A stretch of 32,000 bases of DNA from Kineococcus radiotolerans SRS30216 = ATCC BAA-149 (GCF_000017305.1 NC_009664.2:3750001-3782000); one strand, 5' to 3'; positions 12,331 to 32,000 are shown, counted from the stretch's first letter. Made by a program: numbers and translations. Notes: generated from the sequence alone by a model not told the origin.

Positions 12331-12346
12331 GGCACCCGCCCGGGGC

Positions 12347-13088: not shown

Positions 13089-13089
13089 C

Positions 13090-16435: not shown

Positions 16436-16479
16436 CCGAGCACTCTAGGAGCCGGGCGCGGCACCAGCCTCCGCTGGGC

Positions 16480-17193: not shown

Positions 17194-18042
17194 CTACGCG
17201 GCGGGCCCGTCCCCGGCGCGCGCGGAGCGCACCTGCTCCCGCACGACGCGGGCGCAGTCGGCGGGGTGGTCCCACACCGGGACGTGCCCGCTGCGGGCCC
17301 ACTCCAGCCAGCGCGTCTGCGGCGGCGCGCAGGAGCGCACCAGGAACGACGGCGGCAGCACCCGGTCCCGGCCCCCGGCCACGACCGTCACCGGGACCCG
17401 GACGTCGCCGGCCCGGGTGAAGGAGGCCGCGCCGATCCCGGCGTCGGCGGCGGCGTAGCCCGCCGCGGCCGCGACCGCCTCCACCGCGCCGCGCACGACC
17501 TCGGCGGGCAGCCGGCGCGGGGCGGTGCTGGTGGCGCCCAGGGCCAGCGTCCGGCCCACGGCGGTGGTGACGAGCCCGACGGGCAGGCGCCCCGCGAGGC
17601 GGGCGAACTGCTGCCCCGTGGGGAGCAGCGGCGGGCGCCGGCGGGGGGAGGCCCACAACCCCGCGGGGGTGAAGGCGGTGACGCTGGCGACGGCCTCCTC
17701 CGCCCCGGGGGCCGCGGCCGCCTCCAGGCAGACCCACCCCCCGAGGGAGTGCCCGACGAGGTGGACGCGCCGGCCCTCCTCCGCGGCGAGCGCGGCGGCC
17801 AGCCGGTGGAGGCGCTCCCCGAGGGCCGCGGGGCTCATCGCGCTCGCCTCGGCCACCGGGGGCGCGGTGCCGTGACCGGGCAGGTCCAGGACGTGCAGGC
17901 GGTGGTCGGCGGCGAGGTGCGGGACGAGCAGGGACCACGTGCTCGCCGCCCCGCCGAGGCCGTGGACGAGGACGACGGCCGGGGCCTGTGCCGCGGCCGA
18001 CCCCGCGCGGTGCACGGCGAACCCCTCGAGGAGTCCGCTCAC
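17194..18042 (-). CDS. alpha/beta-fold hydrolase
   Basis: 282 aa with VVLVHGLGG oxyanion region, nucleophile elbow GHSLGG and C-terminal SGHVPVWDHP (catalytic His). The GTG start overlaps the upstream YbaK-like stop (GTGA). Confidence 0.8.
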   Translation of the reverse strand: MSGLLEGFAVHRAGSAAAQAPAVVLVHGLGGAASTWSLLVPHLAADHRLHVLDLPGHGTAPPVAEASAMSPAALGERLHRLAAALAAEEGRRVHLVGHSLGGWVCLEAAAAPGAEEAVASVTAFTPAGLWASPRRRPPLLPTGQQFARLAGRLPVGLVTTAVGRTLALGATSTAPRRLPAEVVRGAVEAVAAAAGYAAADAGIGAASFTRAGDVRVPVTVVAGGRDRVLPPSFLVRSCAPPQTRWLEWARSGHVPVWDHPADCARVVREQVRSARAGDGPAA

Positions 18043-18560
18043 CCGATCTCGACCGGGTGCCCGCTGGTGAGCCGCAGGAGCTCGTCGTAGCGGGTGCGGA
18101 ACACCGCGTGCGGGTGCCCGGCCGGTACCCAGACCGCCGGGTACGGGGCCAGGGCCACGTCCACGAACGTGGGCAGCTGCGCCGTGAGCCCGATCGGGGA
18201 GGCGGACCCCAGCACGGACCCGGTGCAGCGCAGCACGTCCGTGTCGTCGTCCCAGGTCAGCTCCGGCTCGCTGAGGACCCCGGCGAGGACGGCCGGCAGG
18301 ATCGGGTGGGCCGCCGAGGCCACGACGAGCAGCCGTCCCCCGTCCCGGGTGCGGAGCACCGCGGTGGTGGCGACGGCGGCGAGCGGGACCCCGAGGTGCT
18401 CGGCGAGCTGACCCGCGTCCCGCAGCGTCGCCGGGACCTCGAGGACCTCACCCGCCCCGCGCAGCTCGACCAGCGCCGTGGCGGTCGCCTCCACGGCCGG
18501 GGCCGTGGCGGTGCTCGTCCCAGCGTTCCCGGGAGACTCGTGAACCACCGTCCACCTCAT
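18039..18560 (-). CDS. YbaK/EbsC/ProX-type aminoacyl-tRNA editing-domain protein
   Basis: 173 aa with an ATG start. It has a central beta-rich core (LLVVASAAH...) and G.VLGSASPIGL....P.FVD..L....VWVPAG.P...F...YDEL, which resembles free-standing YbaK-family deacylases. Assigned from memory of the fold pattern only. Confidence 0.55.
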   Translation of the reverse strand: MRWTVVHESPGNAGTSTATAPAVEATATALVELRGAGEVLEVPATLRDAGQLAEHLGVPLAAVATTAVLRTRDGGRLLVVASAAHPILPAVLAGVLSEPELTWDDDTDVLRCTGSVLGSASPIGLTAQLPTFVDVALAPYPAVWVPAGHPHAVFRTRYDELLRLTSGHPVEIG

Positions 18561-18611
18561 GCACCACGACGGTAAACCGGTTCCCCCCGCCCGTCGCGGT
18601 GAGCGCCCCGT

Positions 18612-19448
18612 TCAGCGGGTGAGGACGGCGGACCCCTCGCGGACCTGCACCGCGGTGGCCGCGGAGACGACGGTGGCGGTGCCCGCGACGGGGCGGTACG
18701 GGAGCCCGGCGACGGTGTACTCGCCGGTGTACGTCGTGGTGAGGGTGATCAGGTGCTCGCCGGGGGTGTCGTAGGCGTGGGTCAGGGTCGCCCGCGGGTA
18801 CGGGTTCCCGGGGTCGGTGGTGGGGCCCAGGGTGGTGCCGTCCCCGAGGTCCCACGTCCAGCTGGTCGGCGTGGCGCGGACCGTCACCGGGTAGCCGAGG
18901 ACCGTCGTGTCGCGCACGACGACGTCGGTCCCGGTGCGCAGGACGAGCGGCACGTGCAGCAGGGCCAGGCCGGTGCGGGGCTGCAGCTCCACGGCGCCGG
19001 CGGGCAGCGGGAGGCGGCGCAGGTCGGCCTCGGTGACGACGGGCAGGGTGACAGGTTCCGCGTCCTCCGCCCCCGCGGTGCACCTGCTGCCCCCGTTGAC
19101 CCAGGGGGCGCCCCCGGTCCGGGTCCAGGTCGTGGCGAAGGTCTGGCCCGGCGGGCAGAGGCGGTTCGAGGCGCCGCAGAAGTCGTCGCCGAAGGAACCC
19201 TCGGGGCCGTTGCGACCGCAGGCGGGGGTCCTGACGACCTCCACGGGTGGGCCTTGACGAGCAGAGTCCCGGCTGGGATTCCGGTGCTGGCGCTGGGAAT
19301 CGGAACGCGATGCGCCGATCTCGAAACTGTCGTCGCGGCTGATTCCCGTTGACCCCGTGGGGCCCGCCCAGGCAGTCGAGCTGGCGCAGGCCAGGGTCAG
19401 CACGCAGATCGTCGTGCTGACACCCCAGGCGGTCTTCCAGCTCCTCAT
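18612..19448 (-). CDS. secreted protein with Cys-rich N-domain and C-terminal PKD domain
   Basis: 278 aa. The Sec signal is MRSWKTAWGVSTTICVLTLACASSTAWA|G. The region ACGRNG...FCGASNRLCPPG...SRCTAG contains four Cys. The PKD signature is WTWDLGDGTT...THAYDTPGEHLITLTTTY. The ATG overlaps the upstream lipoprotein stop (ATGA). The 5' third has visibly lower GC. Confidence 0.7.
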   Translation of the reverse strand: MRSWKTAWGVSTTICVLTLACASSTAWAGPTGSTGISRDDSFEIGASRSDSQRQHRNPSRDSARQGPPVEVVRTPACGRNGPEGSFGDDFCGASNRLCPPGQTFATTWTRTGGAPWVNGGSRCTAGAEDAEPVTLPVVTEADLRRLPLPAGAVELQPRTGLALLHVPLVLRTGTDVVVRDTTVLGYPVTVRATPTSWTWDLGDGTTLGPTTDPGNPYPRATLTHAYDTPGEHLITLTTTYTGEYTVAGLPYRPVAGTATVVSAATAVQVREGSAVLTR

Positions 19449-20059
19449 TCCACCTCCCAGACGATCCAGCGCCCATCTGACCAGTTGAGATCGAGCCAGA
19501 ACTCACCGTTCGGGACTGACGGCGCGGAGCCGACGACTCGACCGTGGAGGTCGGTTGTCTCGAAGGCCGTCTTGGTCGTTGACACAGTGAGGCCGATCTC
19601 GCCTTTCGCTGCATCCCACGAGTCGACCCGGGTGCCAGTGAACTGGATCTCGAACCCGGTCGAGGAGTAGCCCCGCGCTCGATACTCGTCGATCACATCA
19701 GCCTGGTACCGGCATCCGGAGCAGCCTGCGTCCGAGATGGACAGGAGGAGAGCGGGGTCCCCCGTTCCATTGGCGTAGTTCAGGACCTGCGTGAAGTAGG
19801 CCGCGAACGCGCTGGCTCCGTCCACCGTGAACGTCCGGCTCAGCTCGGTCTGCTCGGGCAGCGGGAGGCTCCTCGTGGTCACCGGGGTGGGGGTCGCGCC
19901 GGCCGGTGAGGCCGCCGGTGTCGTCGGGGTGGCCGTGACGGCGCCGGCCGGGGCGGAACCCACCACTGGCGCGTCCGCCGCCTCCTGCGAACACCCGGCG
20001 AGCGCGCCGACGGCGAGGAGCGCGACGAGGGGTGCGGCGACGCGGTGGAGCGGGATCAC
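19445..20059 (-). CDS. lipoprotein with CxxC motif (possibly DUF6318-like)
   Basis: ORF 19445..20158 trimmed to GTG at 20059, so the start is uncertain. It has a perfect lipobox LAVGALAG|CSQE followed by a Pro/Thr/Ala linker. The globular domain shows AFAAYFTQVLNYANGTGDPALLLSISDAGCSGCRY. GC is lower than the surroundings. Confidence 0.6.
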   Translation of the reverse strand: MIPLHRVAAPLVALLAVGALAGCSQEAADAPVVGSAPAGAVTATPTTPAASPAGATPTPVTTRSLPLPEQTELSRTFTVDGASAFAAYFTQVLNYANGTGDPALLLSISDAGCSGCRYQADVIDEYRARGYSSTGFEIQFTGTRVDSWDAAKGEIGLTVSTTKTAFETTDLHGRVVGSAPSVPNGEFWLDLNWSDGRWIVWEVE

Positions 20060-20209
20060 CGTGGCACGGTCGCACGCCGCGGCGCGGCGCGGGCGCCGTC
20101 GGGAGGTCGCTGTGGACAACCCGTCGGCCGTCCGGGTGACGGCGCCCCCGGGGGTCACCCGGGGTCCCTGGGGAGCGACTCCGCGCCCTGTGGACGGCGA
20201 GGTTCACCG

Positions 20210-20240
20210 TTGACGGGCCCGGAGCGGGGTGGTGTAGCTT
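20210..20240 (+). promoter_or_regulatory. putative sigma-A-type promoter (TTGACG - 19 nt - TAGCTT)
   Basis: -35-like TTGACG at 20210-20215 and TAnnnT -10-like TAGCTT at 20235-20240. The 19-nt spacer is longer than optimal. The LexA box starts 10 nt downstream of the -10, where it would occlude the transcription start. Confidence 0.35.
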
Positions 20241-20250
20241 CGTGATGCGT

Positions 20251-20266
20251 TCGAACCGGTGTTCGA
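20251..20266. promoter_or_regulatory. LexA operator (SOS box)
   Basis: TCGAACcggtGTTCGA is a perfect 6+4+6 palindrome matching the Actinobacteria/Gram-positive LexA consensus (TCGAAC-N4-GTTCGA; Cheo-type GAAC-N4-GTTC core). It is the only GAAC-N4-GTTC in the window. It lies in the divergent intergenic region, ~140 nt upstream of the DUF6504-like start. Confidence 0.8.
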
Positions 20267-20404
20267 ACGCGCTCGGCCGCCCGGTGGCGCGGTCCGTGGG
20301 GAGGGGAAGCTCCACGGGCCGCGCCCCGGGTGCGTCGTCGCGGGCCGCTTCCCCCGGCTCGTCGCGCTGCGCGGTCCGTCGCGGCGTCGGCTCGAGGGGG
20401 GAAG

Positions 20405-20821
20405 GTGACAGCGGTGCGGCGGTTCTCCGACGAGGTCCACGTGCGGTGCGGCGCGAGGGGGGAGGAGGCCGGTGTCCCGGCCCTGTTCGTCTGGCGCGGC
20501 CGGCTCTACGTGGTGCGCGAGGTCCTGTCCCGGTGGCGCGAGCGCAGCGCGTGGTGGGAGCACGCCGCCGTCGCCGCCGTCCACGGCGACGAGGCGGGCG
20601 GGGCGGGGGGCGCGGTGACGGCGGTGCGGCCGGTGCTCGAGATCGGGGACCTCGAGCGGGAGGTCTTCCGCGTCGAGGCCGGGGTGGGGCGGGCCGGCGC
20701 GGTGGGCGTCTACGACCTCGCCCGTCCGGTGGCCCTCGGGACGGCGGCCGTGTCGGAGGTCGCTGGTAATCCTGTTCTCGACGAACCGCGCGAGTGGCAG
20801 TTGCTGCGCGTCAGCGACTGA
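20405..20821 (+). CDS. small conserved actinobacterial protein, DUF6504-like
   Basis: ORF 20330..20821 trimmed to GTG at 20405, preceded by GAGGGGGGAAGG. The 138-aa protein has FSDEVHVR, PALFVWRGRLYVVREVLSRWRERSAWW, EREVFRVEA, GVYDL and W.LLRVSD. This pattern is one I recall being annotated as a DUF6504 family protein. No catalytic motif is recognised. Confidence 0.6.
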   Translation: MTAVRRFSDEVHVRCGARGEEAGVPALFVWRGRLYVVREVLSRWRERSAWWEHAAVAAVHGDEAGGAGGAVTAVRPVLEIGDLEREVFRVEAGVGRAGAVGVYDLARPVALGTAAVSEVAGNPVLDEPREWQLLRVSD

Positions 20822-20883
20822 ACCGCCACCGGCCCGCCGTCCAGGCAGCACCAGACGATCGAACGATCTCGGAGGAGAACTCG

Positions 20884-21315
20884 ATGCCCGGCACCTTCGA
20901 CGTCCCCCGGGGCGTCCCCCGTCCGCTGACCACCGCCGCCCTCGACCTGCTCGAGAGGTGCGAGGAGGAACTGCTCCTGGCGCTGCGCACCACCGACACC
21001 GCCGAACGCTACGTCCACGCCCACCTCGGCGCGTTGCGGGCCGGTGCGGCCCTGGTCGCGGTGCACGGGCGGCCCGTCGGTCCCCGGCGCAACGGTCCGC
21101 GCAGCGTGTGGCAGATGCTCCCCGCCATCGACCCCTCGTTGCAGGAGTGGGCCGACCGGTTCGCCGCCACCGCGCCGCTGCGTTCGGCGGTGGAGGCCGG
21201 GCGCACCGGTGTCGTCGGTGAGGCCGACGCGGAGGAACTCCTCGCCGACGCCGAGCGGTTCCTCCGGGTGGTGGAGTCGCTGCTCGGGCTCAGCGCCGTG
21301 CCGCTCGCCGGCTGA
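20884..21315 (+). CDS. small all-helical HEPN-like protein (SAV_6107-type)
   Basis: ORF 20794..21315 trimmed to ATG at 20884, with GGAGGAG 7 nt upstream. The 143-aa protein has LLERCEEELLLA......ERYVHAHLGALRAGAALVA, PRSVWQMLPAIDPSLQEWADRFAA....RSAVEAG and AEELLADAERFLRVVE. This matches the family I recall as the SAV_6107 family HEPN domain-containing protein. Confidence 0.6.
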   Translation: MPGTFDVPRGVPRPLTTAALDLLERCEEELLLALRTTDTAERYVHAHLGALRAGAALVAVHGRPVGPRRNGPRSVWQMLPAIDPSLQEWADRFAATAPLRSAVEAGRTGVVGEADAEELLADAERFLRVVESLLGLSAVPLAG

Positions 21316-21402
21316 GGCGCGCGGCCCGGGCCGTTCCCCAGCGATCCCGCACCACCTGCTGCTCGGCCTTCCCCACGGGCGCGTTCTCGAAGGACGTCCC
21401 CC

Positions 21403-24400
21403 TTGACCACCACCGCACCCCCGTTCCCGCACCTGCACGTGGCCTCCGGCTACTCCCTGCGGTACGGGACCTCCACCCCGGCGGCTCTCGTCGCCCGGGC
21501 CGCCGACCTCGGCCTGGCGACGCTGGCCCTCACCGACCGGGACGGTCTCCACGGTGCGGTGAAGTTCGTCCGGGCCTGCGTCGACGCGGGGATCGCCCCG
21601 GTCCTCGGCGTCGACCTCGCGACGACGCCCACGGGTTCGGCGACCGGGCTCCCCGAGTGGGCCGATCCCTCGGTCGCCGTGCGCCGCAGGGGGTCGCGCG
21701 CACCGGTGCGGGGCGGGTCGGTGGTCGATCCCCGGTGGCCCCGGATCACCGCGCTCGCCCTCGGCGCCGACGAGGCCGGTGCCGGGCGCGGCTGGGCGGG
21801 TCTGTGCCGGCTGGTGAGCGCGACCCACCTCGGCGGGCGGCGCGGAACCCCCGTCAGCAGCCTCGAACTCGTCGCCGCGCACGCTCGCGGCACCGACGGC
21901 CGCGCGGTGCTGGCCGTGCTGCTGGGGCCGGGTTCGGAACTCGGCCGGGCCGTGCTGGCCCGCCGGGACGACCTCGCGCGCGCCGTCCTGCGCCGCTGGC
22001 AGGAGGCGCTGCCCGCCGGTTCGCTGCACCTGGAGGTCGTCTGCCACCACGCCCCGCCGGGGACGGCCGGCAGCGTCGAGCACGCGGCCCGGGTGCTGGG
22101 GCTGGCCCGCGAGGCCGGGGTCCCCGCGGTGCTCACCGCCGCGGTGCGGTCCGCGGAGCCGGACGGGGCGCTGACGGCGGACCTGCTCGACGCGGTGCGC
22201 CGGCTGGTGCCGCTGGGTCCGCGCCACCTGGACCGCACGACGGGGCAGGGGCACCTCCTGCCCTCGGCCGAGATGGCCCGGACCGCGGCCGACGTCGCCC
22301 GCGCCGCGGGGGACCCGGCCGCCGCGGCCGACCTGCTGGCCGCGACGGCGGTGCTCGCCGGCCGCGCCCGGATCGACCCCGCCCGCGACCTCGGCCTCGG
22401 CCGGCACCACCTGCCCGACCCGGCGGCCCTCGGGCTGGGCGACGACGTCGACCAGTCCGCCCTGCTGCGCGGGCGGGCGGAGGCGCGCATCGCCGCGCGG
22501 TACCCGGGGGCCGGTGCCAGCCGGGAGGCGGAGGTCCGCCGACGCCTGGACGAGGAACTCGCGATCATCGAGCAGGTCGGGTTCGCCAGCTACTTCCTCA
22601 CCGTCGCCGACGTCTGCGACCTGACCCGGGCGATGGGCGTGCGGGTCGCGGCGCGGGGTTCGGGGGCGGGCAGCCTGGTGAACCACCTGCTGGGGATCTC
22701 CGACGTCGAGCCCCTCGGGCACGGGCTGCTCATGGAACGCTTCCTCAACCCCCGGCGCGGGCAGTTGCCCGACATCGACCTCGACGTCGAGTCCGCCCGC
22801 CGCGAGGACGTCTACCGGGCGGTCCTGGACCGCTTCGGCGGGGAGCGGGTCACGTGCGTGTCGATGATGGACAGCTACCGGGTGCGGCACGCCGTCCGCG
22901 ACGTCGGGGCGGCGCTCGGGTTGCCGCCGGCGGAGGTCGACGCCATCGCCACCGCCTTCCCGCACCTGCGCGCCCGCGACGCCCGCGCCGCGATCGCCGA
23001 ACTGCCCGAGCTGCGTCGCAGCGGGCTGGGGGAGGAACGCCTCAGCACCTTCTTCGACCTCGTCGAGCGCCTCGACGGCCTGCCCCGGCACGTCGCGCTG
23101 CACCCCTGCGGGATCGTGCTGTCGAACCGGACCCTCCTGGACCGGACCCCGGTGGAGGCCAGCTGGCGGGGTTTCCCGATGAGCCAGTTCGACAAGGACG
23201 ACGTCGAGGACCTCGGCCTGCTCAAGCTCGACGTCCTCGGGATCCGGATGCAGTCGGCGATGGCGTACGCGGTGCGGGAGGTCGAACGGGTCGAGGGCGT
23301 GCGGATCGACCTCGACGACCGGCAGCAGGTGCCGTTGGACGACCCGGCCACCTTCCGACTGATCCGGTCCACCCGGACCCTCGGCTGCTTCCAGATCGAG
23401 TCGCCGGGGCAGCGGGAACTGGTCGGCAAGTTCGCCCCCGAGACCTTCCACGACATCGTCGTCGACATCTCGCTGTTCCGGCCCGGCCCCGTGAAGTCGG
23501 ACATGGTCGCCCCGTTCCTGCGGGCCCGGCAGGGCTGGGCCGCCCCGGAGTTCCTCGACGACCGGTTGCGGCCGGTGCTGGAGCAGACCCACGGCGTCGT
23601 GGTGTTCCACGAGCAGGTCATCGAGATCATCCGGGCCACCACCGGCCACGACCTCGCGGTGTCCGACGAGTACCGCCGGCACCTGGGGACCCGGCAGGGC
23701 CAGGAGGAGATGGAGCCGCAGTTCAAGCGCCGCGCCGTGGAGCACGGCTACCCGGAGGACGTGGTGGCGCGGATCTGGGAGGTGCTCAAGGCGTTCGCCT
23801 CGTTCGGCTTCTGCAAGGCCCACGCCGCGGCGTTCGCGCTGCCGACGTACCAGTCGGCGTGGCTGAAGACCCACCACCCCGCGGCGTTCCTGGCGGGGGT
23901 CCTCACCCACGACCCGGGCATGTACCCGAAGCGGCTGATCCTCGACGACGCCCGCAACCTCGGCGTCGAGGTGCTGGGCCTGGACGTCAACGCCTCCGGC
24001 GACACCTACCGCGTCGAACCCGTGGACCTCCCCGGGCCCCGCCCCGCCCCCCACGGCCAGGCGGCCCTCCACCCGTGGCCGGGGTGGCGGGAGGGGCGCG
24101 ACGCCGAGGGGCTGGGGGAGGGCGTCGCCGACGGCACCGGGTTCGGCATCCGGTTGTCCCTGAGCGACGTCAAGGGGATCTCCGCGGCGGAGGTCTCCCG
24201 CCTCGTCGCCGGTCAGCCCTACCGCTCGCTCGCCGACCTGTGGCAGCGCGCCCGCCCCTCGCGGCCGGTGGCCGAGCGCCTCGTCCTCACCGGGGCGCTG
24301 GACTCCCTGCACGGCCTGCGCCCGGTCGGCCGGGCCGGGGAACCCGCGCCCCGGCGGGGGCGCACCACCCGCCGGGACCTGCTGCTGCAGGTCGCCGAGC

Positions 24401-25365
24401 TCGACCGCTGGACCCGCTCCACCGCCGGGCCCGGGCCGGTGCGCGTCCCCCGGGCCGTCGCGGCGGGCGGGCCGGGTCCCCTCGACGTCCGGGCCGCCGC
24501 CGCCGCGCAGTCGCGGGCCGCGCGGCCCGTCGCCGACCCCGCCGGAGCGGTGCAGCTCGCCCTCGACCTCGGCGACGCCCCCGAGGAGGTCGCGCCCAGC
24601 GGCCTGCCGGAGATGACCGGGGCCGAACGCGTCCGCGCCGAGCTCGACGTCCTCGGGCTCGACGTCAGCTCCCACGTCGTCGACTTCTACGCCCCGCTCC
24701 TGCGCGCGCTGGGGGTCACCCCGGCCCGGGAGCTGCGCTCGCGGCGCAACGCCGCGCAGCTGCTCGTCGCGGGGGTGAAGGTCGCCACCCAGACCCCGCC
24801 GGTCCGCTCGGGGCGGCGGGTCGTCTTCCTCACCCTCGACGACACCACCGGCCCGCTGGACGTGACCTTCTTCGAGGACGCGCAGGGCCCCTACGCCGCG
24901 ACGGTCTTCCACTCCTGGCTGCTCGTCGTGCGCGGGGTGCTGCGGCGCACCGGACCCCGGGGGGTGTCGCTGCGCGCCACCGGGGCGTGGGAGCTGCCCG
25001 CGCTGTGGGACGCCTGGAACGTCGACGGGATCGACGTCGTGCGCGAGCTCATCGCCGGCGCCCCCGACCCCGGCCGCTCCCCGGCCGCGACCCCCACGGC
25101 CCCTCCGGCCCCCCTGACCCCCTCGGCCCCCCTCCCCGCGGAGCACGGCGCGACCGCCGGCGGGACGGGCACCCGGCGCGTGCTGGTGCACGCCAGCGGC
25201 TTCCGGCAGTCCCCCTACGCCGACCTCCGGCCGGCCGGGGAGGACACCCGCAACTCCCGCGCGATCGGCCGGGCCCCCCGGGAGGAGCCGGACCGGGACC
25301 CCGGCGGGCGGGCCGACCCCCCGCGCAAGCTGTGGCACTCCAGCGGCGGGAGCCCCGGGAGGTGA
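21403..25365 (+). CDS. dnaE2: DNA polymerase III alpha-subunit homologue, DnaE2-like (error-prone type)
   Basis: 1320 aa with a TTG start at 21403, GAAGGA 9 nt upstream. The PHP domain shows HLHVASGYSLRYG and LTDRDGLHGAV. Palm catalytic aspartates are in LPDIDLDVES and LLKLDVLGIRM. Fingers show CFQIESPGQRE...SLFRPGPV and GFCKAHAAAFA. The OB-fold segment is LLVAGVKVATQTPPVRSGRRVVFLTLDDTTGPLDVTFF. It lacks the DnaE1 N-terminal HLHNHTEYS pattern and a tau-binding C-terminal domain. Confidence 0.8.
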   Translation: MTTTAPPFPHLHVASGYSLRYGTSTPAALVARAADLGLATLALTDRDGLHGAVKFVRACVDAGIAPVLGVDLATTPTGSATGLPEWADPSVAVRRRGSRAPVRGGSVVDPRWPRITALALGADEAGAGRGWAGLCRLVSATHLGGRRGTPVSSLELVAAHARGTDGRAVLAVLLGPGSELGRAVLARRDDLARAVLRRWQEALPAGSLHLEVVCHHAPPGTAGSVEHAARVLGLAREAGVPAVLTAAVRSAEPDGALTADLLDAVRRLVPLGPRHLDRTTGQGHLLPSAEMARTAADVARAAGDPAAAADLLAATAVLAGRARIDPARDLGLGRHHLPDPAALGLGDDVDQSALLRGRAEARIAARYPGAGASREAEVRRRLDEELAIIEQVGFASYFLTVADVCDLTRAMGVRVAARGSGAGSLVNHLLGISDVEPLGHGLLMERFLNPRRGQLPDIDLDVESARREDVYRAVLDRFGGERVTCVSMMDSYRVRHAVRDVGAALGLPPAEVDAIATAFPHLRARDARAAIAELPELRRSGLGEERLSTFFDLVERLDGLPRHVALHPCGIVLSNRTLLDRTPVEASWRGFPMSQFDKDDVEDLGLLKLDVLGIRMQSAMAYAVREVERVEGVRIDLDDRQQVPLDDPATFRLIRSTRTLGCFQIESPGQRELVGKFAPETFHDIVVDISLFRPGPVKSDMVAPFLRARQGWAAPEFLDDRLRPVLEQTHGVVVFHEQVIEIIRATTGHDLAVSDEYRRHLGTRQGQEEMEPQFKRRAVEHGYPEDVVARIWEVLKAFASFGFCKAHAAAFALPTYQSAWLKTHHPAAFLAGVLTHDPGMYPKRLILDDARNLGVEVLGLDVNASGDTYRVEPVDLPGPRPAPHGQAALHPWPGWREGRDAEGLGEGVADGTGFGIRLSLSDVKGISAAEVSRLVAGQPYRSLADLWQRARPSRPVAERLVLTGALDSLHGLRPVGRAGEPAPRRGRTTRRDLLLQVAELDRWTRSTAGPGPVRVPRAVAAGGPGPLDVRAAAAAQSRAARPVADPAGAVQLALDLGDAPEEVAPSGLPEMTGAERVRAELDVLGLDVSSHVVDFYAPLLRALGVTPARELRSRRNAAQLLVAGVKVATQTPPVRSGRRVVFLTLDDTTGPLDVTFFEDAQGPYAATVFHSWLLVVRGVLRRTGPRGVSLRATGAWELPALWDAWNVDGIDVVRELIAGAPDPGRSPAATPTAPPAPLTPSAPLPAEHGATAGGTGTRRVLVHASGFRQSPYADLRPAGEDTRNSRAIGRAPREEPDRDPGGRADPPRKLWHSSGGSPGR

Positions 25366-25408
25366 CCGGAGCGGCGCGCGGCCACGTCCGCACCGGCGGC
25401 CCCGCCGG

Positions 25409-26215
25409 GTGTCTAGGGTGGGGGACCGCAGCACCGACCGGACGACCACCCGCACGAGCCTGGAGGAACGAGTGGCGAAGGAACGGGGCCGTCCCCGCAC
25501 GTCGACGGTCCTCTGGGAGGGGGTCCAGCGCCTGCTCGCCGACGCGGCCGCCGCGCCCGGCGCCGGGGAACTCACCGTCGTCGACCTCGGCGGCGGGACG
25601 GGCGGCCTCGCCGTGCGGGTCGCCGCGCTCGGCCACCGGGTCGTCGTGGTCGACCCCTCGCCCGACGCCCTCGCCGCCCTCGAACGGCGCACCGTCGAAG
25701 CCGGGCTCTCCGACCGGGTCCGCGCCCTGCAGGGGGACGCGACCGACCTCGCCGCGGTGCTCGAACCCGGCCGCGCCGACGTCCTGCTCTGCCACGGGGT
25801 CCTCGAGGTCGTCGACGACCCGCGCGCCGCGCTGCGCGCCGCCCACGACGCCCTGCGCCCCGGCGGCCGGCTCAGCCTGCTCGTCGCGCAGTGGCCGGCG
25901 AGCGTCCTGGCCCGCGTCCTGTCCGGGCACCTCGACCAGGCGCTGCACGTGCTCTCCGACGCCGACCACCGGTGGAGCGGGCACGACCCGCTGCGGCGCC
26001 GGTTCGACCGCGCCTCGGCGACGGCGCTCGCGCAGGGGGCCGGGTTCACCGTCACCGCGGTCGAGGGCACCCGGACGTTCAGCGACGTCGTCCCCTCCAC
26101 CCGCACCGAGTCCGACGCGGACGTCGAGCTGCTGCGCCGCCTGGAGGCGCTGGCCTCCACGTCCCCGGAGCTGCTCGGGCTGGCCGGGCACCTGCACCTG
26201 CACGCCACCCGCTGA
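25409..26215 (+). CDS. class I SAM-dependent methyltransferase
   Basis: 268 aa. The start is uncertain (GTG 25409 or 25418). Motif I is VVDLGGGTGGLA, with acidic post-I VVVVDPS; also LLCHGVLEVVDDP and LRPGGRLSLLV. An ~80-aa C-terminal extension has no recognised family. Confidence 0.75.
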   Translation: MSRVGDRSTDRTTTRTSLEERVAKERGRPRTSTVLWEGVQRLLADAAAAPGAGELTVVDLGGGTGGLAVRVAALGHRVVVVDPSPDALAALERRTVEAGLSDRVRALQGDATDLAAVLEPGRADVLLCHGVLEVVDDPRAALRAAHDALRPGGRLSLLVAQWPASVLARVLSGHLDQALHVLSDADHRWSGHDPLRRRFDRASATALAQGAGFTVTAVEGTRTFSDVVPSTRTESDADVELLRRLEALASTSPELLGLAGHLHLHATR

Positions 26216-26236
26216 ACCCGTCCCGGGGAGCGGGCG

Positions 26237-27460
26237 GTGAGCCGGCGGCAGCTGCGGCCCGACGGCCCCGGGGGCTGGGGGCTGGACGACGACGACACCG
26301 GCTGCACCGTGCTGCACGCCGACATGGACGCCTTCTACGCCTCCGTCGAGCTGCTGCGCCGCCCCGACCTGGTGGGGACGCCCGTCATCGTCGGCGGCGG
26401 GAACCGCGGGGTGGTGCTGTCGGCGACCTACGAGGCCCGCCGCCACGGCGTGCACGCCGCGATGCCGATGGCCCGCGCCCGGCGCCTGTGCCCGGGCGCG
26501 ACGGTCCTCACCCCCCACCACGAGGACTACGCGCGGATCTCCGCGGGCGTCATGGAGGTGTTCCGCTCGATCACCCCGCTCGTGGAACCCCTCAGCCTCG
26601 ACGAGGCCTTCCTCGACGTCTCCGGCGCCGTCCGCCGCCTCGGCAGCCCGGCCCGGATCGGTGCCGCGCTGCGCGACCGGATCGCCGACGAGCAGGGCAT
26701 CACCTGCTCCGTCGGGGTCGCCTCGACGAAGTTCGTGGCCAAGCTCGCCTCCGGCGCGGCCAAGCCGGACGGGCTGCTGGTCGTCCCCCACGCCCAGACG
26801 GTCGCCTTCCTGCACGCGCTGCCGGTCTCGGCGCTGTGGGGGGTGGGGGAACGCACCGAGGAGACGCTGGCCCGCCTCGGCCTGCGGACGGTCGCCGACA
26901 TCGCCCACACCCCCGTCACGACCCTGGTCCGCGGTCTCGGGGACGCCACCGGCCGGCACCTGCACGCCCTGGCCTGGGGGCGGGACGAGCGCCGGGTCGT
27001 CGCGCTCGCCCCCGAACGCAGCATCGGTTCCGAGGAGACGTTCTCCCGCGACGTGGACGACGCGCGGGTGGTGCACCGGGAGCTGCTGCGGCTGGCCGAG
27101 CGCACCGCCGCCCGGGCCCGGGCGGCCGGGGTGGCCGGGCGGACGGTCGTCCTCAAGGTCCGGTTCGCCGACTTCACCACGATCACCCGCTCCCGCACCC
27201 TGCGCGAACGCACCGACGTCACCCGGGAGGTCCACGCCACCGCGCGGGACCTCTTCGACGCCCTCGCCCTCGACCGGGCCCGGGTGCGGCTGGTGGGGGT
27301 GCGGCTGGAGGGGCTGGCCGAGTCGGCCACCCAACCGCGGCAGCTGGTCCTCGGCGAACGCACCCACGGGTGGCGCGAGGCCGACGGGGCGGTCGACCGC
27401 GCGGGGGCCCGCTTCGGGGCCGGGAGTGTGAGACCGGCCACTCTGCTCCCCCCGCGGTGA
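26237..27460 (+). CDS. dinB: DNA polymerase IV (Y-family)
   Basis: 407 aa with a GTG start. It has VLHADMDAFYASVELLRRPDL.G.PVIVGG, SLDEAFLDVSG, SVGVASTKFVAKLAS..AKPDG and GVGERT. QLVLG at 27341-27355 resembles the E. coli Pol IV beta-clamp-binding C-terminus QLVLGL, and is followed by ~35 extra residues. Confidence 0.92.
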   Translation: MSRRQLRPDGPGGWGLDDDDTGCTVLHADMDAFYASVELLRRPDLVGTPVIVGGGNRGVVLSATYEARRHGVHAAMPMARARRLCPGATVLTPHHEDYARISAGVMEVFRSITPLVEPLSLDEAFLDVSGAVRRLGSPARIGAALRDRIADEQGITCSVGVASTKFVAKLASGAAKPDGLLVVPHAQTVAFLHALPVSALWGVGERTEETLARLGLRTVADIAHTPVTTLVRGLGDATGRHLHALAWGRDERRVVALAPERSIGSEETFSRDVDDARVVHRELLRLAERTAARARAAGVAGRTVVLKVRFADFTTITRSRTLRERTDVTREVHATARDLFDALALDRARVRLVGVRLEGLAESATQPRQLVLGERTHGWREADGAVDRAGARFGAGSVRPATLLPPR

Positions 27461-27689
27461 CCCGGGCCGCCTCCCGGTGAGCGCGGGTCCGTTCCGTCCG
27501 GCAGACTCGCTGTGACCTGCGGTGGAACCGACCGCGGAGCTGCGTCGTTCTCCCCGCTGGAGGGGACGAGACACGCCAAGAGCACCACGGCACGACGCTC
27601 GGTGGGAGACGATGTGGTAAGCCGAGTTTCGTCCGCAGCCACGGGGACATATCCTTTGAAGCACAACGTGCGCACGCCAGGAGGTACAG

Positions 27690-28082
27690 GTGCCGCTCTC
27701 GGAACATGAGCAGCGTCTGCTCGAGCAGATGGAACGTGCGCTGTCCGCGGACGATCCCAAGTTCGCCAACGCCATGAAGGGTTCCCGTCACGGACGCGCC
27801 GCCAGGCGGCGCCTCCTCGTCGGCATCGCTGCCGTCGTGGTGGGTCTCGTGCTCCTCATCATCGGGGCCAGCACGAGCCGGATCTGGCTGGGGGCAGGCG
27901 GTTTCATCGTCATGCTCGCCGGCACGATCTGGGCCTTCTCACCGGCTCGGGGAGCGGGCACCGCCGGTGGGCAGCCCCCCGTGGGGGGATCGCGGCCGGT
28001 GCGGCCGGGGAAGTCGCGCCGGAGCGGGTCCTTCATGGAACGCCTCGAGCAACGGTGGGACCGCCGACGCGGTCAGTGGTGA
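27690..28082 (+). CDS. DUF3040 domain membrane protein (Rv2169c-like)
   Basis: 130 aa. The GTG start has AGGAGG 6 nt upstream. N-terminal MPLSEHEQRLLEQMERALSADDPKFANAMKG is the DUF3040 hallmark. Two TM helices and a basic tail follow. Confidence 0.85.
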   Translation: MPLSEHEQRLLEQMERALSADDPKFANAMKGSRHGRAARRRLLVGIAAVVVGLVLLIIGASTSRIWLGAGGFIVMLAGTIWAFSPARGAGTAGGQPPVGGSRPVRPGKSRRSGSFMERLEQRWDRRRGQW

Positions 28083-28089
28083 TCCACTC

Positions 28090-28112
28090 CTCACCGGGCC
28101 CGGCCCGGTGAG
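28090..28112. terminator. hairpin 1 of three in the convergent intergenic region
   Basis: CTCACCGGGCC-c-GGCCCGGTGAG begins 8 nt after the DUF3040 stop. Confidence 0.45.
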
Positions 28113-28129
28113 GCCAGCACGACCACGCC

Positions 28130-28165
28130 ACGAAGGGCGCCGCGAGACCTCGCGGCGCCCTTCGT
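28130..28165. terminator. hairpin 2: perfect 16-bp stem, 4-nt loop
   Basis: ACGAAGGGCGCCGCGA-gacc-TCGCGGCGCCCTTCGT. This is the strongest stem-loop I found in the window. Confidence 0.6.
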
Positions 28166-28192
28166 CGTCCCCGCCCCCGGGCGGGGACGACG
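28163..28192. terminator. hairpin 3: perfect 13-bp stem, 4-nt loop
   Basis: CGTCGTCCCCGCC-cccg-GGCGGGGACGACG shares 3 nt with hairpin 2 and ends 9 nt before the transglutaminase stop codon (28201). Confidence 0.5.
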
Positions 28193-28200
28193 GGACCGGG

Positions 28201-30492
28201 TCAGTCCCGGTCCCACCACTCCAGGGCCCGCCGGACCCCGGCCATCGGGAAGCACCGGGCCCGCCACCGCAGCCCCCGCGGCCGGCCGGCGGCCACCGCG
28301 TCGACGACGACGTCGACCTGGGCCCGGACGAGGCGACCGGCCTGGCCCGCCCGCGGACGCACCAGCAGCGAGCCCCCCGCGGTCTCCCGCGGGCCGCCGC
28401 CGGAGGCGCCGAAGCGGCTGCTCTCCACCGCCGCCCGCATCCGCTGCACCTCCTGCGCCGCGACCGACCCCGGTTCCAGGAGCTCCGACAGCCCGTCCGC
28501 CCGCTGCCGGGGGGTCGCCGACGGCGCCCAGCGCACCCCCAGGTCGTGGACCCGGTCCTCCAGCTCCGCCCAGGCCGCCTCGGCGGAGGACCCGGTGTCG
28601 TGCACCCCGGCCCACCGGCGGCGGCTGAGCACGGTGGCCGACACCCGCGGGGCGAGCAGCAGCAGCACCAGCGCCAGCGCCCCGAGGACCCAGCCCCACG
28701 GCAGGGCCAGGACCCGGCCCCAGCCGGTCGGCTCCGCCTCGGTGCCGGCGTCGGCCCCGGTGGCGGTGGAGGTCGCGGTGGTGGCCGTCGGCGCGGCCGC
28801 CGAGGAGCTCGCCGCCGAAGGGGCCGCCGAGCGGGACGGGGCGGTCGTCGGCACCGGCACCAGGGGGACGCTCCAGGACGGCGACTGACCGCTCCGCGTC
28901 GCCGGCGTCGGCTCGAAGCGGGTCCACCCCACGCCCTCGAAGTACAGCTCCGGCCAGGCGTGGGCGTCCTGGGCGCTGATCCGCCAGCGCCCGTTCGCGC
29001 TCTCCTCCCCGGGCAGGAACCCGATGGCGACCCGCGCCGGGATGCCCAGCGCCCGGGCCATGACGGCCATCGCGGAGGCGAACTGGACGCAGAACCCGGT
29101 CTTCTGCTCCAGGAACGCCGCGACCGCGTCGGACCCGCCGTCGTTGGGCGCGGTGGTGGAGTAGGTGAACCCGCCGGTGGCGCGGAAGTAGCGCTGCAGG
29201 GCCGCGGCCTGCTCGTAGGGGTCGGAGGCCCCGGCGGTGACCTGGGCCGCGGTGTCGCGCACCACCTGCGGCAGCTCGGGCAGCTCGGTGTAGCGGGACT
29301 CGAGCTCGTCCGGCGCCCGCGGGGCGGCCCGCAGCTCGTCCTCGGTCGGGGCGACCTCGAGGTGGGTGACCTCGTACTGCCGGCCGCGGGTGGTCTCCCC
29401 GTCGCCGACGACGTTGAGGGTGTCGGTCTCGTAGAGCCACTCGCCCTCGATGCCGACGCGCAGGGCCGGGTAGGGCAGCGGCAGGTAGGTCTGGTCCAGC
29501 CCGCGCACCGAGATCGAGGTCCGGCGCACGGTCGAGGCGTCGCGCACGGGGTCCGACAGCCCCGGCGCGGGGTTCAGCCCGTCCTGCACCCGCTGGCTGC
29601 GGGGGATGTCGGCCCCCGTGCTGGGGGCCCAGGTGCGGCCGTCGAACACGTCGGCGGTGACGATGCGCAACGGCGCGGGGTCGGGCTGGTCGGTCTGGTA
29701 CGTGAGGATCGTGGCGTTCGAGCGGGCCCCGAGGCTGGCCTTGAGGTTGAGGATCGGGTTGATCACCGCGATGGTGTCGCCCTGCCCGGTGTCGATCGTC
29801 AGCGGCCGCTCGTCCAGGCCCGGCACCGTTGCGGGCACCGCGACTGCGGCCACCAGGGCCACCGCCGCGGTGGCGCTCGCGGTCACCCCCGCCACCGAGC
29901 GGCGGGCGGGGCCGGGCGGGCGCAGGAGAGAGCTGCGGCGGTCCCCGGCCAGCAGCACCAGGTAGGGGACGCTCGCGAGCACGAACGCGACGGCGCTGGA
30001 CCCGCCCGGGGCCAGGGCCAGCGGCACCGCCACCACGGCGAGCAGCGGCAGCCCGGCCAGCGCGGGCCGGCGGAGGGTGACGGCGAAGAGGTCCACGGCG
30101 AGGGCCAGGAGCCCGGCCCCGGCGACCAGCAGCAGCCGCAGACCGCGCAGGTCGACGGCCGGCACGCTGTAGCGCTGGATGACCTGGACCCCGTCGGTGG
30201 CCAGTTGCGCGAAGCGGCCCGGGGTGGCGGGGGTCGGCACGACCCCCGCCACCGTGGTGCTGCCGCCGAAGAGGACCAGGAGCACGGCCAGGAGGGCGAG
30301 GACCTGCACCGCGACCGCCGGGCCGCGCCGGCGGAGCAGGGCCCGGACCAGCAGCCCGGAGGCGGTCACGGCGCAGACCGCGCTGAACGCGCCGACCAGC
30401 CACCCCGAGGACACGAGGAGCGGTCGCAGGGTGAGCACGGCGGCGGCGCTGGCGACACCGGCCCACAGGGCGGTGCGGGCACTGCGGGTCAC
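28201..30492 (-). CDS. transglutaminase-domain integral membrane protein (TgpA/DUF3488-like)
   Basis: ORF 28201..31656 trimmed to GTG at 30492, overlapping the DUF58 stop (GTGA). The 763-aa protein has ~6 N-terminal TM helices. The transglutaminase core is TGFCVQFASAMAVMARALGIPARVAIGF...DAHAWPELYF.GVGWTRFEPTP. A further TM helix (WGWVLGALALVLLLLAP) and a C-terminal cytoplasmic region follow. Confidence 0.85.
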   Translation of the reverse strand: MTRSARTALWAGVASAAAVLTLRPLLVSSGWLVGAFSAVCAVTASGLLVRALLRRRGPAVAVQVLALLAVLLVLFGGSTTVAGVVPTPATPGRFAQLATDGVQVIQRYSVPAVDLRGLRLLLVAGAGLLALAVDLFAVTLRRPALAGLPLLAVVAVPLALAPGGSSAVAFVLASVPYLVLLAGDRRSSLLRPPGPARRSVAGVTASATAAVALVAAVAVPATVPGLDERPLTIDTGQGDTIAVINPILNLKASLGARSNATILTYQTDQPDPAPLRIVTADVFDGRTWAPSTGADIPRSQRVQDGLNPAPGLSDPVRDASTVRRTSISVRGLDQTYLPLPYPALRVGIEGEWLYETDTLNVVGDGETTRGRQYEVTHLEVAPTEDELRAAPRAPDELESRYTELPELPQVVRDTAAQVTAGASDPYEQAAALQRYFRATGGFTYSTTAPNDGGSDAVAAFLEQKTGFCVQFASAMAVMARALGIPARVAIGFLPGEESANGRWRISAQDAHAWPELYFEGVGWTRFEPTPATRSGQSPSWSVPLVPVPTTAPSRSAAPSAASSSAAAPTATTATSTATGADAGTEAEPTGWGRVLALPWGWVLGALALVLLLLAPRVSATVLSRRRWAGVHDTGSSAEAAWAELEDRVHDLGVRWAPSATPRQRADGLSELLEPGSVAAQEVQRMRAAVESSRFGASGGGPRETAGGSLLVRPRAGQAGRLVRAQVDVVVDAVAAGRPRGLRWRARCFPMAGVRRALEWWDRD

Positions 30493-31808
30493 GGGCGGAC
30501 CTCCTCGTCGGGGAGCGGGGCGGGCCGGGCGGCGCGCGTGGCGTCGGACGGGGCGCCCGCGGGAGTGCCGCGCGCCCCGGTGCGGGTGAGTCTGGCCCAG
30601 ACCTCCGACACGGGGTCGCCGGGGCCGGCCAGCGCCGTGCGCCAGCCCGCGCGCGCCAGCACCAGGTGCGCGCGGCGCAGCCCCGGCCCGTCGTCCTGAC
30701 CGGGCTGCGTCCACGCGGCCGTCCGCTCCAGGACCGCCAGGGCGGGGACGCCCAGCGGTCGCGCCGACAGCAGGGGGGCCACGTCCTCCTCGTCGACCCC
30801 GGCGAGGACCGCGACCAGGAGGGTGGAGTCGGCCCGTCCCAGCGCGGCGACGGAGCGGGCCAGCCCCTCGGGGCCGCCCGGGCGCAGCCGGGCCAGCGAG
30901 CGCAGCAGGCCGCGGACGGCGGAGCTGTCGTCGAGCTCGCGCGGCGGGTCGAAGGCGCCGTCGTGCAGGAGCCGGACGCGGTGCCCGCGCCGGTGCAGGT
31001 GCACGGCCGCCGAGGCGACCAGGCTGACGGCCCACTCCAGCGAGGACCCCGCACCGCGCCCCTCGTGCGCCGCCGCCCGGGTGTCGAGCAGCAGGACGAC
31101 GTCGGGGCGGCCCGGGTGCTCGTCGGAGCGGACCATGACCGCGCCCCGCCGGGCGGTGGAGCGCCAGTGCACGCGGCGCAGGTCGTCGCCCACGCGGTAC
31201 TCCCGCAGGGAGACGTCGTCGAGGGAGGCGGCGGCGGAGGCGCCGGCGGAGGACCCGCGGGCACCCCCGAGGTCGCCCAGGACGAGGTCGGCCAGCGGGT
31301 GCACGCGCGGCAGCACGTCCAGGGTGACGCTCCCGCCGAGGGTGCGGCTGGCGGTGACCAGGCCGAAGACGTCGCGGGCGACGAGCGTGACCGGTCCCAG
31401 CGGGTAGGACCCGCGCACCTCGGCCCTCACCCTGTGCTCGAGGTCGAGGATCTGGCCCTCCCTGAGGCGGGGGACCGGGAGGCGCGCGGTCCCGCCCAGG
31501 GCCAGGGGGACCTGGTCCTCCAGGACCAGGCGCACCCCGGCCCGGGCCCGTCCCAGGACGGTCAGCCGGACGGTGCTCGTGACCCCGGCCTCGACGAGCT
31601 CCGACTTCGACCTCGACACCAGGTCGAGGGTCGCGGCGCTGCGCACGGCGGACCAACCGGCCACCACGAGGAGCACGACGAGCAGGACCCCCACGCGCAG
31701 GACGTCGCGCTGGCCGGTGAGCGGTGCCCCGACCAGGACCACCAGCGCGACCGCCGCGAAGGTCCAGCCGCGCGCGGAGGGGCGCAGGCGCACGGGGCGA
31801 CCGCTCAC
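30489..31808 (-). CDS. DUF58 domain protein
   Basis: 439 aa with a GTG start 7 nt after the MoxR stop. It has two N-terminal TM helices and the hallmark LREYRVGDDLRRVHWRSTARRGAVMVR....GRPDVVLLLD. Confidence 0.85.
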   Translation of the reverse strand: MSGRPVRLRPSARGWTFAAVALVVLVGAPLTGQRDVLRVGVLLVVLLVVAGWSAVRSAATLDLVSRSKSELVEAGVTSTVRLTVLGRARAGVRLVLEDQVPLALGGTARLPVPRLREGQILDLEHRVRAEVRGSYPLGPVTLVARDVFGLVTASRTLGGSVTLDVLPRVHPLADLVLGDLGGARGSSAGASAAASLDDVSLREYRVGDDLRRVHWRSTARRGAVMVRSDEHPGRPDVVLLLDTRAAAHEGRGAGSSLEWAVSLVASAAVHLHRRGHRVRLLHDGAFDPPRELDDSSAVRGLLRSLARLRPGGPEGLARSVAALGRADSTLLVAVLAGVDEEDVAPLLSARPLGVPALAVLERTAAWTQPGQDDGPGLRRAHLVLARAGWRTALAGPGDPVSEVWARLTRTGARGTPAGAPSDATRAARPAPLPDEEVRP

Positions 31809-31815
31809 CGGGGGC

Positions 31816-32000
31816 TCACCGCGGGGAGGGGAGGGCCGTGGAGCGCAGCACGTCGACCACCACGTCGGCGCCCTCGCGCCCGGCCAGCAGGGCGTCCGCC
31901 GTCAGCAGCAGGCGGTGGGCGACGACGGGCACGGCGAGGGCCTGCACGTCGTCGGGCAGCACGTGGTCGCGACCCTCCATCGCGGCGCGCGAGCGGGCCG
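31816..32000 (-). CDS. MoxR-like AAA+ ATPase, C-terminal fragment (5' end outside window)
   Basis: My manual translation of the minus strand gives ...ARSRAAMEGRDHVLPDDVQALAVPVVAHRLLLTADALLAGREGADVVVDVLRSTALPSPR*. This matches the MoxR lid-domain pattern (GR.YV.PDDV..LA.PVL.HRL.L). It is not in the ORF track because it runs off the window. Confidence 0.7.
   Translation of the reverse strand, partial: ARSRAAMEGRDHVLPDDVQALAVPVVAHRLLLTADALLAGREGADVVVDVLRSTALPSPR

Follow-up and report, generated by a model that had tools for sequence, protein, structure and literature searches.

Five closely spaced, co-directional genes of Kineococcus radiotolerans SRS30216 (Krad_3217 to Krad_3213) probably constitute a LexA-repressed operon for a ‘split’ mutasome that operates independently of ImuA and ImuB, an interpretation to which we assign a probability of about 0.8. 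The genes reside in a 32-kb stretch of DNA with a G+C content of ~77%, hereafter called the window. They are predicted to encode, in order, a stand-alone ImuB C-terminal domain (ImuB-C, listed in Pfam as DUF6504; gene 1), a HEPN-like protein (gene 2), a DnaE2B-type C-family DNA polymerase (gene 3), a class I S-adenosylmethionine (SAM)-dependent methyltransferase (gene 4) and a DinB-type Y-family polymerase (PolY; gene 5). DnaE2-type mutasomes drive damage-induced mutagenesis and the evolution of drug resistance in Actinobacteria, and a question of present interest is how DnaE2 enzymes act when ImuA and ImuB are missing. For the core of the present system, the published answer is a combination of split ImuB, active PolY and RecA. 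To this known core, our analysis adds a conserved HEPN gene, a methyltransferase gene and an SOS operator.

The core components have been catalogued in a 2026 survey of bacterial polymerases in Nucleic Acids Research, which divides DnaE2 enzymes into clades A, B and X, finds DnaE2B in genomes without ImuA or ImuB, and associates one actinobacterial DnaE2B group with an active PolY, a stand-alone ImuB-C and RecA (PMC12926913). Its supplement lists ABS04679 (1320 amino acids) as DnaE2B, ABS04681 as ImuB-C, ABS04677 (407 amino acids) as PolY and ABS02980 as RecA, and describes this locus as a ‘DnaE2B-PolY-ImuBC-RecA system’ with a ‘good tetramer complex modeled’ by AlphaFold (PMC12926913). The sequences given there correspond to genes 3, 1 and 5. 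ImuA-less variants had been described in 2019 (PMC6511836), and in the K. radiotolerans genome paper Krad_3213 is already annotated as DinB, with Krad_3215 recorded as a paralogue of DnaE. Thus, the seemingly surprising presence of a DnaE2-type polymerase without ImuA′/ImuB, which the initial annotation of the window had emphasized, is already explained, because this very locus has been listed and modelled (PMC12926913). The same annotation had reported no functional description of the two small proteins, a statement that fails for the first of them, since stand-alone ImuB-C was first defined in 2013 and has been described since (PMC3765255, PMC6511836). The HEPN gene, the methyltransferase gene and the LexA box appear neither in the text nor in the supplements of PMC12926913, in which the Pfam name DUF6504 is likewise unmentioned, and they are also absent from PMC3765255 and PMC6511836. 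A literature search for HEPN together with DnaE2, and another for DUF6504, returned nothing.

Promoter and LexA box

The window carries a single GAAC-N4-GTTC site, TCGAACcggtGTTCGA, which extends to a perfect palindrome located between a promoter-like pair of hexamers and gene 1 (Table 1). The 16-mer TCGAACCGGTGTTCGA occurred in 0 of 100 dinucleotide-preserving shuffles, and no further LexA-type site with two or fewer mismatches was found in the 32 kb. The box consensus matches the Gram-positive/mycobacterial SOS box cited for the ultraviolet (UV)-induced dnaE2 of Streptomyces (PMC3273824), in agreement with the original identification of the palindrome as the actinobacterial LexA operator.

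Conservation of this site was evaluated at related loci identified by a locus scan of one genome per species, in which gene 1 relatives were found at 495 loci and the best 80 were analysed. A box within 400 nucleotides (nt) upstream of gene 1 is perfect at 60 of 78 loci and carries at most one mismatch at 72 of them, and the remaining 1.26 Mb of these loci contains two perfect sites and ten with one mismatch. The arms of the box are fixed across loci, and its 4-nt spacer is variable.

The TTGACG and TAGCTT elements that had been noticed upstream of the box are indeed present, separated by a spacer of 19 nt. A sigma-70 promoter and terminator scan of positions 19900–27900 called no site, the promoter being missed because of this spacer length. 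The putative promoter is called from conservation rather than from the scan. In box-anchored upstream regions from 65 related loci, conservation extends to TTGAC(G/A), to the gTGTAnnnT that follows after ~19 nt and to the spacing before the box, with gTGTAnnnT ending 10 nt short of the box in nearly all loci. This conserved spacing indicates that the box covers the likely transcription start. A conserved LexA operator on the promoter argues for damage control of the genes that follow. In undamaged cells, LexA bound just downstream of the −10 element would block transcription, and DNA damage would cause RecA-stimulated LexA cleavage and allow production of one transcript that includes all five genes.

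The intergenic distances of 62, 87, 43 and 21 nt proposed at the outset are borne out by the gene coordinates, and the five genes form a single tightly packed unit. All five open reading frames (ORFs) are backed by the GC content of their codon positions (0.92–0.97 at third positions, GC3; ~0.54 at second positions, GC2). The same measure places the start of gene 1 at the GTG at 20405, or alternatively at the GTG at 20414, which would yield a product of 135 amino acids, and the start of gene 2 at the ATG at 20884. The gene 1 product is 100% identical to a K. radiotolerans DUF6504 protein.

Table 1. Features of the operon and its flanks, in window coordinates
Feature	Position	Strand	Identifier	Description
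−35-like hexamer	20210..20215	+		TTGACG; conserved distance from box
−10-like hexamer	20235..20240	+		TAGCTT (TAnnnT), conserved GTG in front; 10 nt before box
LexA (SOS) box	20251..20266	strandless		TCGAAC-N4-GTTCGA; perfect 16-mer palindrome
Gene 1	20405..20821	+	Krad_3217 (by tag spacing), ABS04681	Predicted stand-alone ImuB-C (DUF6504), 138 amino acids
Gene 2	20884..21315	+	Krad_3216 (by tag spacing), presumably ABS04680	HEPN_SAV_6107, 143 amino acids
Gene 3	21403..25365	+	Krad_3215, ABS04679	DnaE2B-type C-family polymerase, 1320 amino acids
Gene 4	25409..26215	+	Krad_3214 (by tag spacing), presumably ABS04678	Predicted class I SAM methyltransferase, 268 amino acids
Gene 5	26237..27460	+	Krad_3213, ABS04677	Y-family polymerase (DinB type), 407 amino acids
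Upstream flank	18039-20158			YbaK/tRNA_edit
Downstream flank	27690-31901			DUF3040, TgpA transglutaminase, DUF58

Components of the predicted mutasome

Family scans with Pfam and NCBIfam uphold the labels originally given to the five proteins (DUF6504, HEPN, DnaE2-like, methyltransferase and DinB), with no NCBIfam model matching gene 1 or gene 2. Gene 1 matches PF20114 (DUF6504) with an E value of 3e-18. In a canonical ImuB, encoded by the imuA-imuB-dnaE2 operon of a Rhizobium Ti plasmid, PF20114 is found at residues 428–500, after the IMS domains, with a score of 24.2 bits that equals the gathering score. Alignment with published ImuB-C proteins reveals that gene 1 keeps the WW pair, the Asp and the C-terminal Trp. 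Its AlphaFold2 model is an all-beta domain whose core has a predicted local distance difference test score (pLDDT) above 90, and the absence of any match for this model among folds in the PDB accords with the ‘novel beta-barrel’ reported for ImuB-C. Judged by these sequence features, DUF6504 is a stand-alone form of the ImuB C-terminal domain, and the earlier assertion that the first small protein looks nothing like ImuA′/ImuB is wrong for this reason.

Gene 3 carries a complete set of domains (PHP, DNA_pol3_alpha, finger, HHH_6 and OB). Its NCBIfam scores are 605.7 bits for DnaE2 and 595.5 bits for DnaE1, both below cut-off, and its relatives in the PDB are DnaE1 only. Assignment to DnaE2B rests on the published phylogeny and on a degenerate PHP site, both of which support the original description of the enzyme as DnaE2-type rather than replicative (PMC12926913). 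Two metal-ligand positions of the PHP domain differ from those of E. coli alpha (SLRYG in place of SMIDG, and TDRDG). These substitutions are conserved, as are the catalytic PDIDLD and an internal clamp-type motif, QLALDLG, at residue 1051. The C-terminal tail (window positions 25100–25365) presents conserved VLVHASGFRQSPYAD and PRKLWHSSPGSxGR segments after a variable Pro/Ala-rich linker, and may serve to bind a partner.

Gene 5 scores 404.5 bits against NCBIfam PRK03858 (DinB; cut-off 367) and has intact catalytic motifs (DMDAFYASVE and SLDEAF). It also has an aromatic residue, Tyr, at what we take to be the steric-gate position, presumed from the E. coli DinB sequence. A clamp-like QLVLGE near its C-terminus is followed by GWREAxxAVDRAxARFGAGSVRPAxL, which is >90% conserved. 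Within this region, ...AVDRAGARFGAGSVRPA... parallels the RecA N-terminus, ...AIDKNFGKGSVMRLG / ...AIDKNFGKGSVMRL..., and corresponds to the RecA-NT motif. Gene 5 thus apparently encodes an active PolY with a RecA-NT motif. It contains no DUF6504 domain and is the sole Y-family gene of the cassette. The cassette has no RecA-like ORF, and the rest of the window yielded neither an additional IMS ORF nor a RecA-like one. In the published genome table, K. radiotolerans is credited with one DnaE1, no DnaE2A, two DnaE2B and two Y-family proteins (PMC12926913), and both Y-family proteins are of the DinB type in the genome paper, consistent with the proposal that full-length imuA′ and imuB are missing.

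The published AlphaFold-based model of this locus suggests how these proteins could cooperate. ImuB-C, a small beta-barrel, would bind the PHP domain of the error-prone DnaE2B, and the catalytically intact PolY would recruit RecA through its C-terminal RecA-NT motif. In our proposal, the clamp-type motifs of both polymerases would in addition tether them to the beta clamp, such that PolY could insert nucleotides opposite lesions and DnaE2B could then extend.

Gene 2 is a clear member of PF18726 (HEPN_SAV_6107), with an E value of 2e-31 and a score of 108.8 bits (cut-off 27.2). Its AlphaFold2 model is a five-helix bundle (pLDDT 86.7), and the top Foldseek matches are HEPN domains with template modelling (TM) scores of 0.58–0.68 but a weak E value of 0.017. 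The best of these structures are 2hsb (AF_0298), 1wol and 3o10, with ST0689, sacsin and HepT among the proteins named. The gene 2 HEPN profile had no match among PDB sequences, and it exhibits no similarity to rhizobial ImuA (hhalign probability 0.5%). In HEPN domains, the canonical Rx4-6H motif is located at the end of helix 3 (PMC3710099). At this position, the gene 2 family has R100 in 72 of 77 sequences, with no His after it. R42 and R52 are invariant, H47 is present in 71 of 77 sequences and replaced by Gln in the other six, and Y43, H47, W76, W89, F93 and E104 are near-invariant. The R42-x4-H47 arrangement sits in helix 2, apart from the canonical motif. Gene 2 is therefore predicted to encode a HEPN protein that lacks the canonical catalytic histidine. 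This accords with a 2013 survey in which the SAV_6107 family was described as actinobacterial and without the Rx4-6H motif (PMC3710099). No gene context was listed in that survey, and the present data tie the family member to imuB-C and dnaE2B.

Gene 4 matches the Pfam families Methyltransf_11, Methyltransf_12 and Methyltransf_25 and contains a GxGxG-type SAM motif, VVDLGGGTGG. Its nearest solved structures, with full-length matches, are CmoM (8joz, E value 1e-21) and 4htf. NCBIfam CmoM (NF008264) is also the best full-length family match, but the score of 96.2 bits is far under the cut-off of 366 and thus short of an equivalog-level match. The protein is best described as a putative class I SAM-dependent methyltransferase that is CmoM/SmtA-like. 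The SAM-binding half of gene 4 also matches PADLOC mad2, from the methylation-associated defence system, with 78.8 bits; this probably reflects generic Rossmann-fold similarity and is not taken as a sign of a defence role.

Conservation of the cassette and relation to known systems

The comparative searches used a narrow DUF6504 alignment for the locus scan, as a wider one that included distant ImuB-C proteins was too diverse. To evaluate gene content, profiles of the five window proteins were searched iteratively against ORFs from all six frames, and protein searches were followed through the best 120 matches. The best 80 loci represent Kineosporiales, Micrococcales, Nanopelagicales, Frankiales and Mycobacteriales. 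They include ~20 Kineococcus species, other Kineosporiaceae, Dermatophilaceae (Pedococcus, Phycicoccus and Oryzihumus) and Ornithinimicrobium, with Nanopelagicales, Frankiales and Mycobacteriales represented by metagenome-assembled genomes (MAGs). Two high-GC actinobacterial cassettes are filed under a ‘Janthinobacterium lividum’ MAG and an ‘uncultured Neorhizobium’ MAG, and these are probably mis-binned contigs. Outside Kineococcus, the median identities to the window proteins of genes 1 to 5 are 44%, 49%, 60%, 51% and 70%, respectively.

The order ImuB-C, HEPN, DnaE2B on the same strand is found in all loci long enough to judge except one (L024), and the association between the small genes and the polymerase seen in the window thereby extends across these relatives. 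The HEPN stop codon overlaps the DnaE2B start codon (ATGA) in at least 16 loci, one of which (L025) was checked by eye. All five genes are present in 49 loci, including the window, and only the methyltransferase is missing from five others; the methyltransferase accordingly lies between DnaE2B and PolY in 49 of 54 judgeable loci, with 22 contigs ending too early for genes 4 and 5 to be judged. The exceptional locus, on the complete 7.3-Mb chromosome of a Kineosporiaceae MAG (L024, 9983–12420), contains a perfect LexA box and, downstream of it, genes for ImuB-C, HEPN and a PolY of the DinB type, with TgpA coming immediately next. DnaE2B and the methyltransferase are both missing there, and HEPN stays with ImuB-C and PolY despite the loss of the polymerase.

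Independent gene calls for Angustibacter, combined with Pfam, give the same five-gene layout. They also give the same flanks as in the window, namely a YbaK/tRNA_edit gene upstream and DUF3040, TgpA transglutaminase and DUF58 genes downstream. The shared flanking genes place the cassette at a fixed position in the core chromosome. In tblastn searches of a plasmid collection, genes 1 and 2 gave no match.

The closest known counterpart is the putative DnaE2B-PolY-[ImuB-C]-RecA mutasome of the Venclovas laboratory, which has identical components and includes this locus (PMC6511836, PMC12926913). It is confined to Actinobacteria, its PolY is active and bears a RecA-NT motif, and the host genomes lack ImuA and ImuB, as published for K. 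radiotolerans. As described, however, it comprises four proteins, and its named representative, Tessaracoccus lapidicaptus, seems to have a plain three-gene form, as judged by contiguous accession numbers only. A DUF6504 gene is also found directly before DnaE2B in Nonomuraea gerenzanensis (L083, 6198–10648), where the polymerase is 49% identical to gene 3. That locus has no HEPN, methyltransferase or PolY gene nearby and no LexA box within 17.6 kb. The 11.85-Mb record that contains it is filed as a plasmid and is evidently a mislabelled chromosome.

Canonical ImuA(ImuA′)-ImuB-DnaE2 systems, as in Mycobacterium, Caulobacter and Pseudomonas, likewise place an error-prone C-family polymerase under SOS control, contact the DnaE2 PHP domain through ImuB-C and carry a RecA-NT motif in the Y-family partner. 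In those systems, a full-length ImuB unites an inactive Y-family core, the RecA-NT motif and ImuB-C. Here ImuB is split, with the Y-family part represented by a catalytically intact DinB and ImuB-C by a separate protein of 138 amino acids. ImuA is absent from the cassette and RecA is predicted in its place, and the polymerase, which has its own clamp-type motif, is assigned to clade DnaE2B rather than DnaE2A. In the Rhizobium plasmid pTiK15_93 (L082, 7549–8214), a gene for an SOS response-associated peptidase (SRAP) lies directly after imuA-imuB-dnaE2, an association that agrees with PMC3765255.

Streptomyces dnaE2-dinB2 resembles the cassette in that a DnaE2B-class polymerase is co-transcribed with a Y-family gene, is preceded by a GAAC-N4-GTTC box and is UV-inducible (PMC3273824). 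It differs by its inactivated PolY, by the absence of ImuB-C, HEPN and methyltransferase genes, and by a direct overlap between its two genes. The plasmid copies in Streptomyces, which also carry lexA, are limited to a DnaE2B-like gene, an inactive PolY and lexA. A DnaE2B-like dnaE is found on many linear plasmids of Streptomyces (151 matched records). For example, in the linear plasmid of Streptomyces sp. MMBL 11-1 (L081, 6052–11209), dnaE overlaps a truncated Y-family gene (337 amino acids, partial IMS) that is followed by lexA, with ligA upstream. The Geobacter lexA-imuB-C-polY operon (cited in PMC6511836) shares with the cassette a stand-alone ImuB-C, an active PolY, damage control and a single transcript, but has no DnaE2, HEPN or methyltransferase and has lexA inside the operon. 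The Kineosporiaceae MAG locus without DnaE2B (L024) resembles this arrangement.

Candidate accessory genes, alternative functions and genomic surroundings

Strict synteny and translational coupling make an accessory or regulatory role for the HEPN protein plausible. We see an even chance that it acts as a non-catalytic adaptor or regulator of the polymerase complex or of its messenger RNA. A more specific proposal, to which we give somewhat less than even odds, is that, throughout this lineage, HEPN_SAV_6107 serves the actinobacterial mutasome lacking ImuA as a so far unrecognized subunit or gatekeeper, with the methyltransferase modifying a component or substrate of the same pathway. In that case synthesis of the HEPN protein would be matched to that of DnaE2B, and the protein would contact ImuB-C, DnaE2B or PolY-RecA and assume part of the role that ImuA has in canonical systems. 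The published model of four proteins would then be incomplete for most of the clade. The CmoM-like methyltransferase most likely provides an auxiliary and dispensable SOS function.

Several points weigh against a split mutasome of this composition. The case for LexA binding, damage induction, co-transcription, complex formation and a mutagenic function is inferential throughout, and our literature search found no Kineococcus damage-response expression or LexA-binding data. The NCBIfam scores fail to separate DnaE2 from DnaE1 for gene 3, and the clamp-like motif of PolY is without its last hydrophobic residue. A mutagenic role for DnaE2B-class enzymes is unproven, given that deletion of Streptomyces dnaE2 produced no UV-mutagenesis phenotype (PMC3273824). 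The tetramer is predicted to assemble well in the published model without the HEPN protein, which moreover appears to be absent from Nonomuraea and, by contiguous accession numbers only, from Tessaracoccus. Therefore, the HEPN protein is not universally required in related systems.

The last two points can also be accommodated if neither the HEPN protein nor the methyltransferase belongs to the polymerase machinery and the two instead provide a separate SOS-induced, RNA-directed function that shares its transcript. For instance, RNA binding or cleavage together with methylation of transfer RNA (tRNA) or ribosomal RNA could remodel translation in damaged cells. A comparable case is the E. coli dinB-yafN-yafO-yafP operon, which includes genes for a toxin-antitoxin pair and an acetyltransferase. 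Typical HEPN domains are RNases or bind RNA (PMC3710099), gene 4 has the tRNA methyltransferase CmoM and SmtA as its closest solved relatives, the published tetramer is modelled with confidence in the absence of both the HEPN protein and the methyltransferase, and the methyltransferase is missing from five of the 54 loci noted above. We nonetheless regard this possibility as rather unlikely. The fixed position of HEPN between imuB-C and dnaE2B, with stop/start overlap in at least 16 loci, is typical of complex subunits, and the retention of HEPN beside ImuB-C and PolY in the locus that has lost DnaE2B points in the same direction. In addition, the HEPN protein is without the catalytic His of Rx4-6H, and gene 4 falls far below the CmoM cut-off (96 versus 366 bits).

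Another alternative is a toxin-antitoxin-like or defence module, in which gene 2 encodes an active HEPN RNase toxin, gene 1 encodes its partner, and the pair has become fixed beside SOS polymerases. The toxins of two-gene modules include many small HEPN proteins (PMC3710099), and R42, H47, R52 and R100 could form an alternative active site of the kind proposed for AF_0298-like HEPN proteins, AF_0298 (2hsb) being the best structural match of gene 2. However, gene 2 has ImuB-C and DnaE2B as neighbours, not an MNT or other known antitoxin, and gene 1 corresponds to an ImuB-C domain that binds DnaE2 in models. The pair occupies one conserved chromosomal position with conserved flanks rather than mobile DNA. 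The canonical catalytic His is missing from gene 2, and H47 is changed to Gln in 6 of 77 sequences. PADLOC gave no significant defence-system match for gene 2, the only hint being a weak match to PDC-M05B (E value 0.0025). A toxin module is thus very improbable.

Comparably small odds attach to the idea that the cassette is a specialized replication device, for example one that patches the ends of the linear K. radiotolerans chromosome in the way put forward for DinB homologues of Streptomyces, or that gene 3 is a second replicative DnaE1. The K. radiotolerans chromosome is linear (PMC2587704), telomere replication in Streptomyces involves DinB1 and DinB2 (PMC3273824), and the DnaE1 and DnaE2 scores of gene 3 are nearly equal. 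Against this, conservation of a LexA operator at the promoter speaks for control by damage, the PHP metal-ligand positions of gene 3 are replaced, and the cassette is distributed among many genera and orders irrespective of replicon topology. Moreover, a single DnaE1 is encoded elsewhere in the genome, and the published class of gene 3 is DnaE2B (PMC12926913).

The interpretation of the region as a split mutasome operon with additional genes offers a useful lead, given a HEPN gene fixed between imuB-C and dnaE2B, the usual presence of a CmoM-like methyltransferase gene, and a strongly conserved LexA operator and promoter. Studies of this mutasome class in Kineococcus, Janibacter and their relatives should take in the HEPN and methyltransferase genes.

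Other features of the window lie outside the predicted operon. Immediately upstream of the promoter, a stretch of lower GC content (0.70) encodes a DUF6318 protein (19445–20158, minus strand) and a PKD-domain protein. Genes for phosphofructokinase and class II DAHP synthase are present at 2395–4954. A carotenoid cluster at 9665–16444 includes a phytoene-desaturase-like amine oxidase, a polyprenyl synthetase, a CDP-alcohol phosphatidyltransferase-like gene and Caroten_synth, and fits the orange pigment of Kineococcus.

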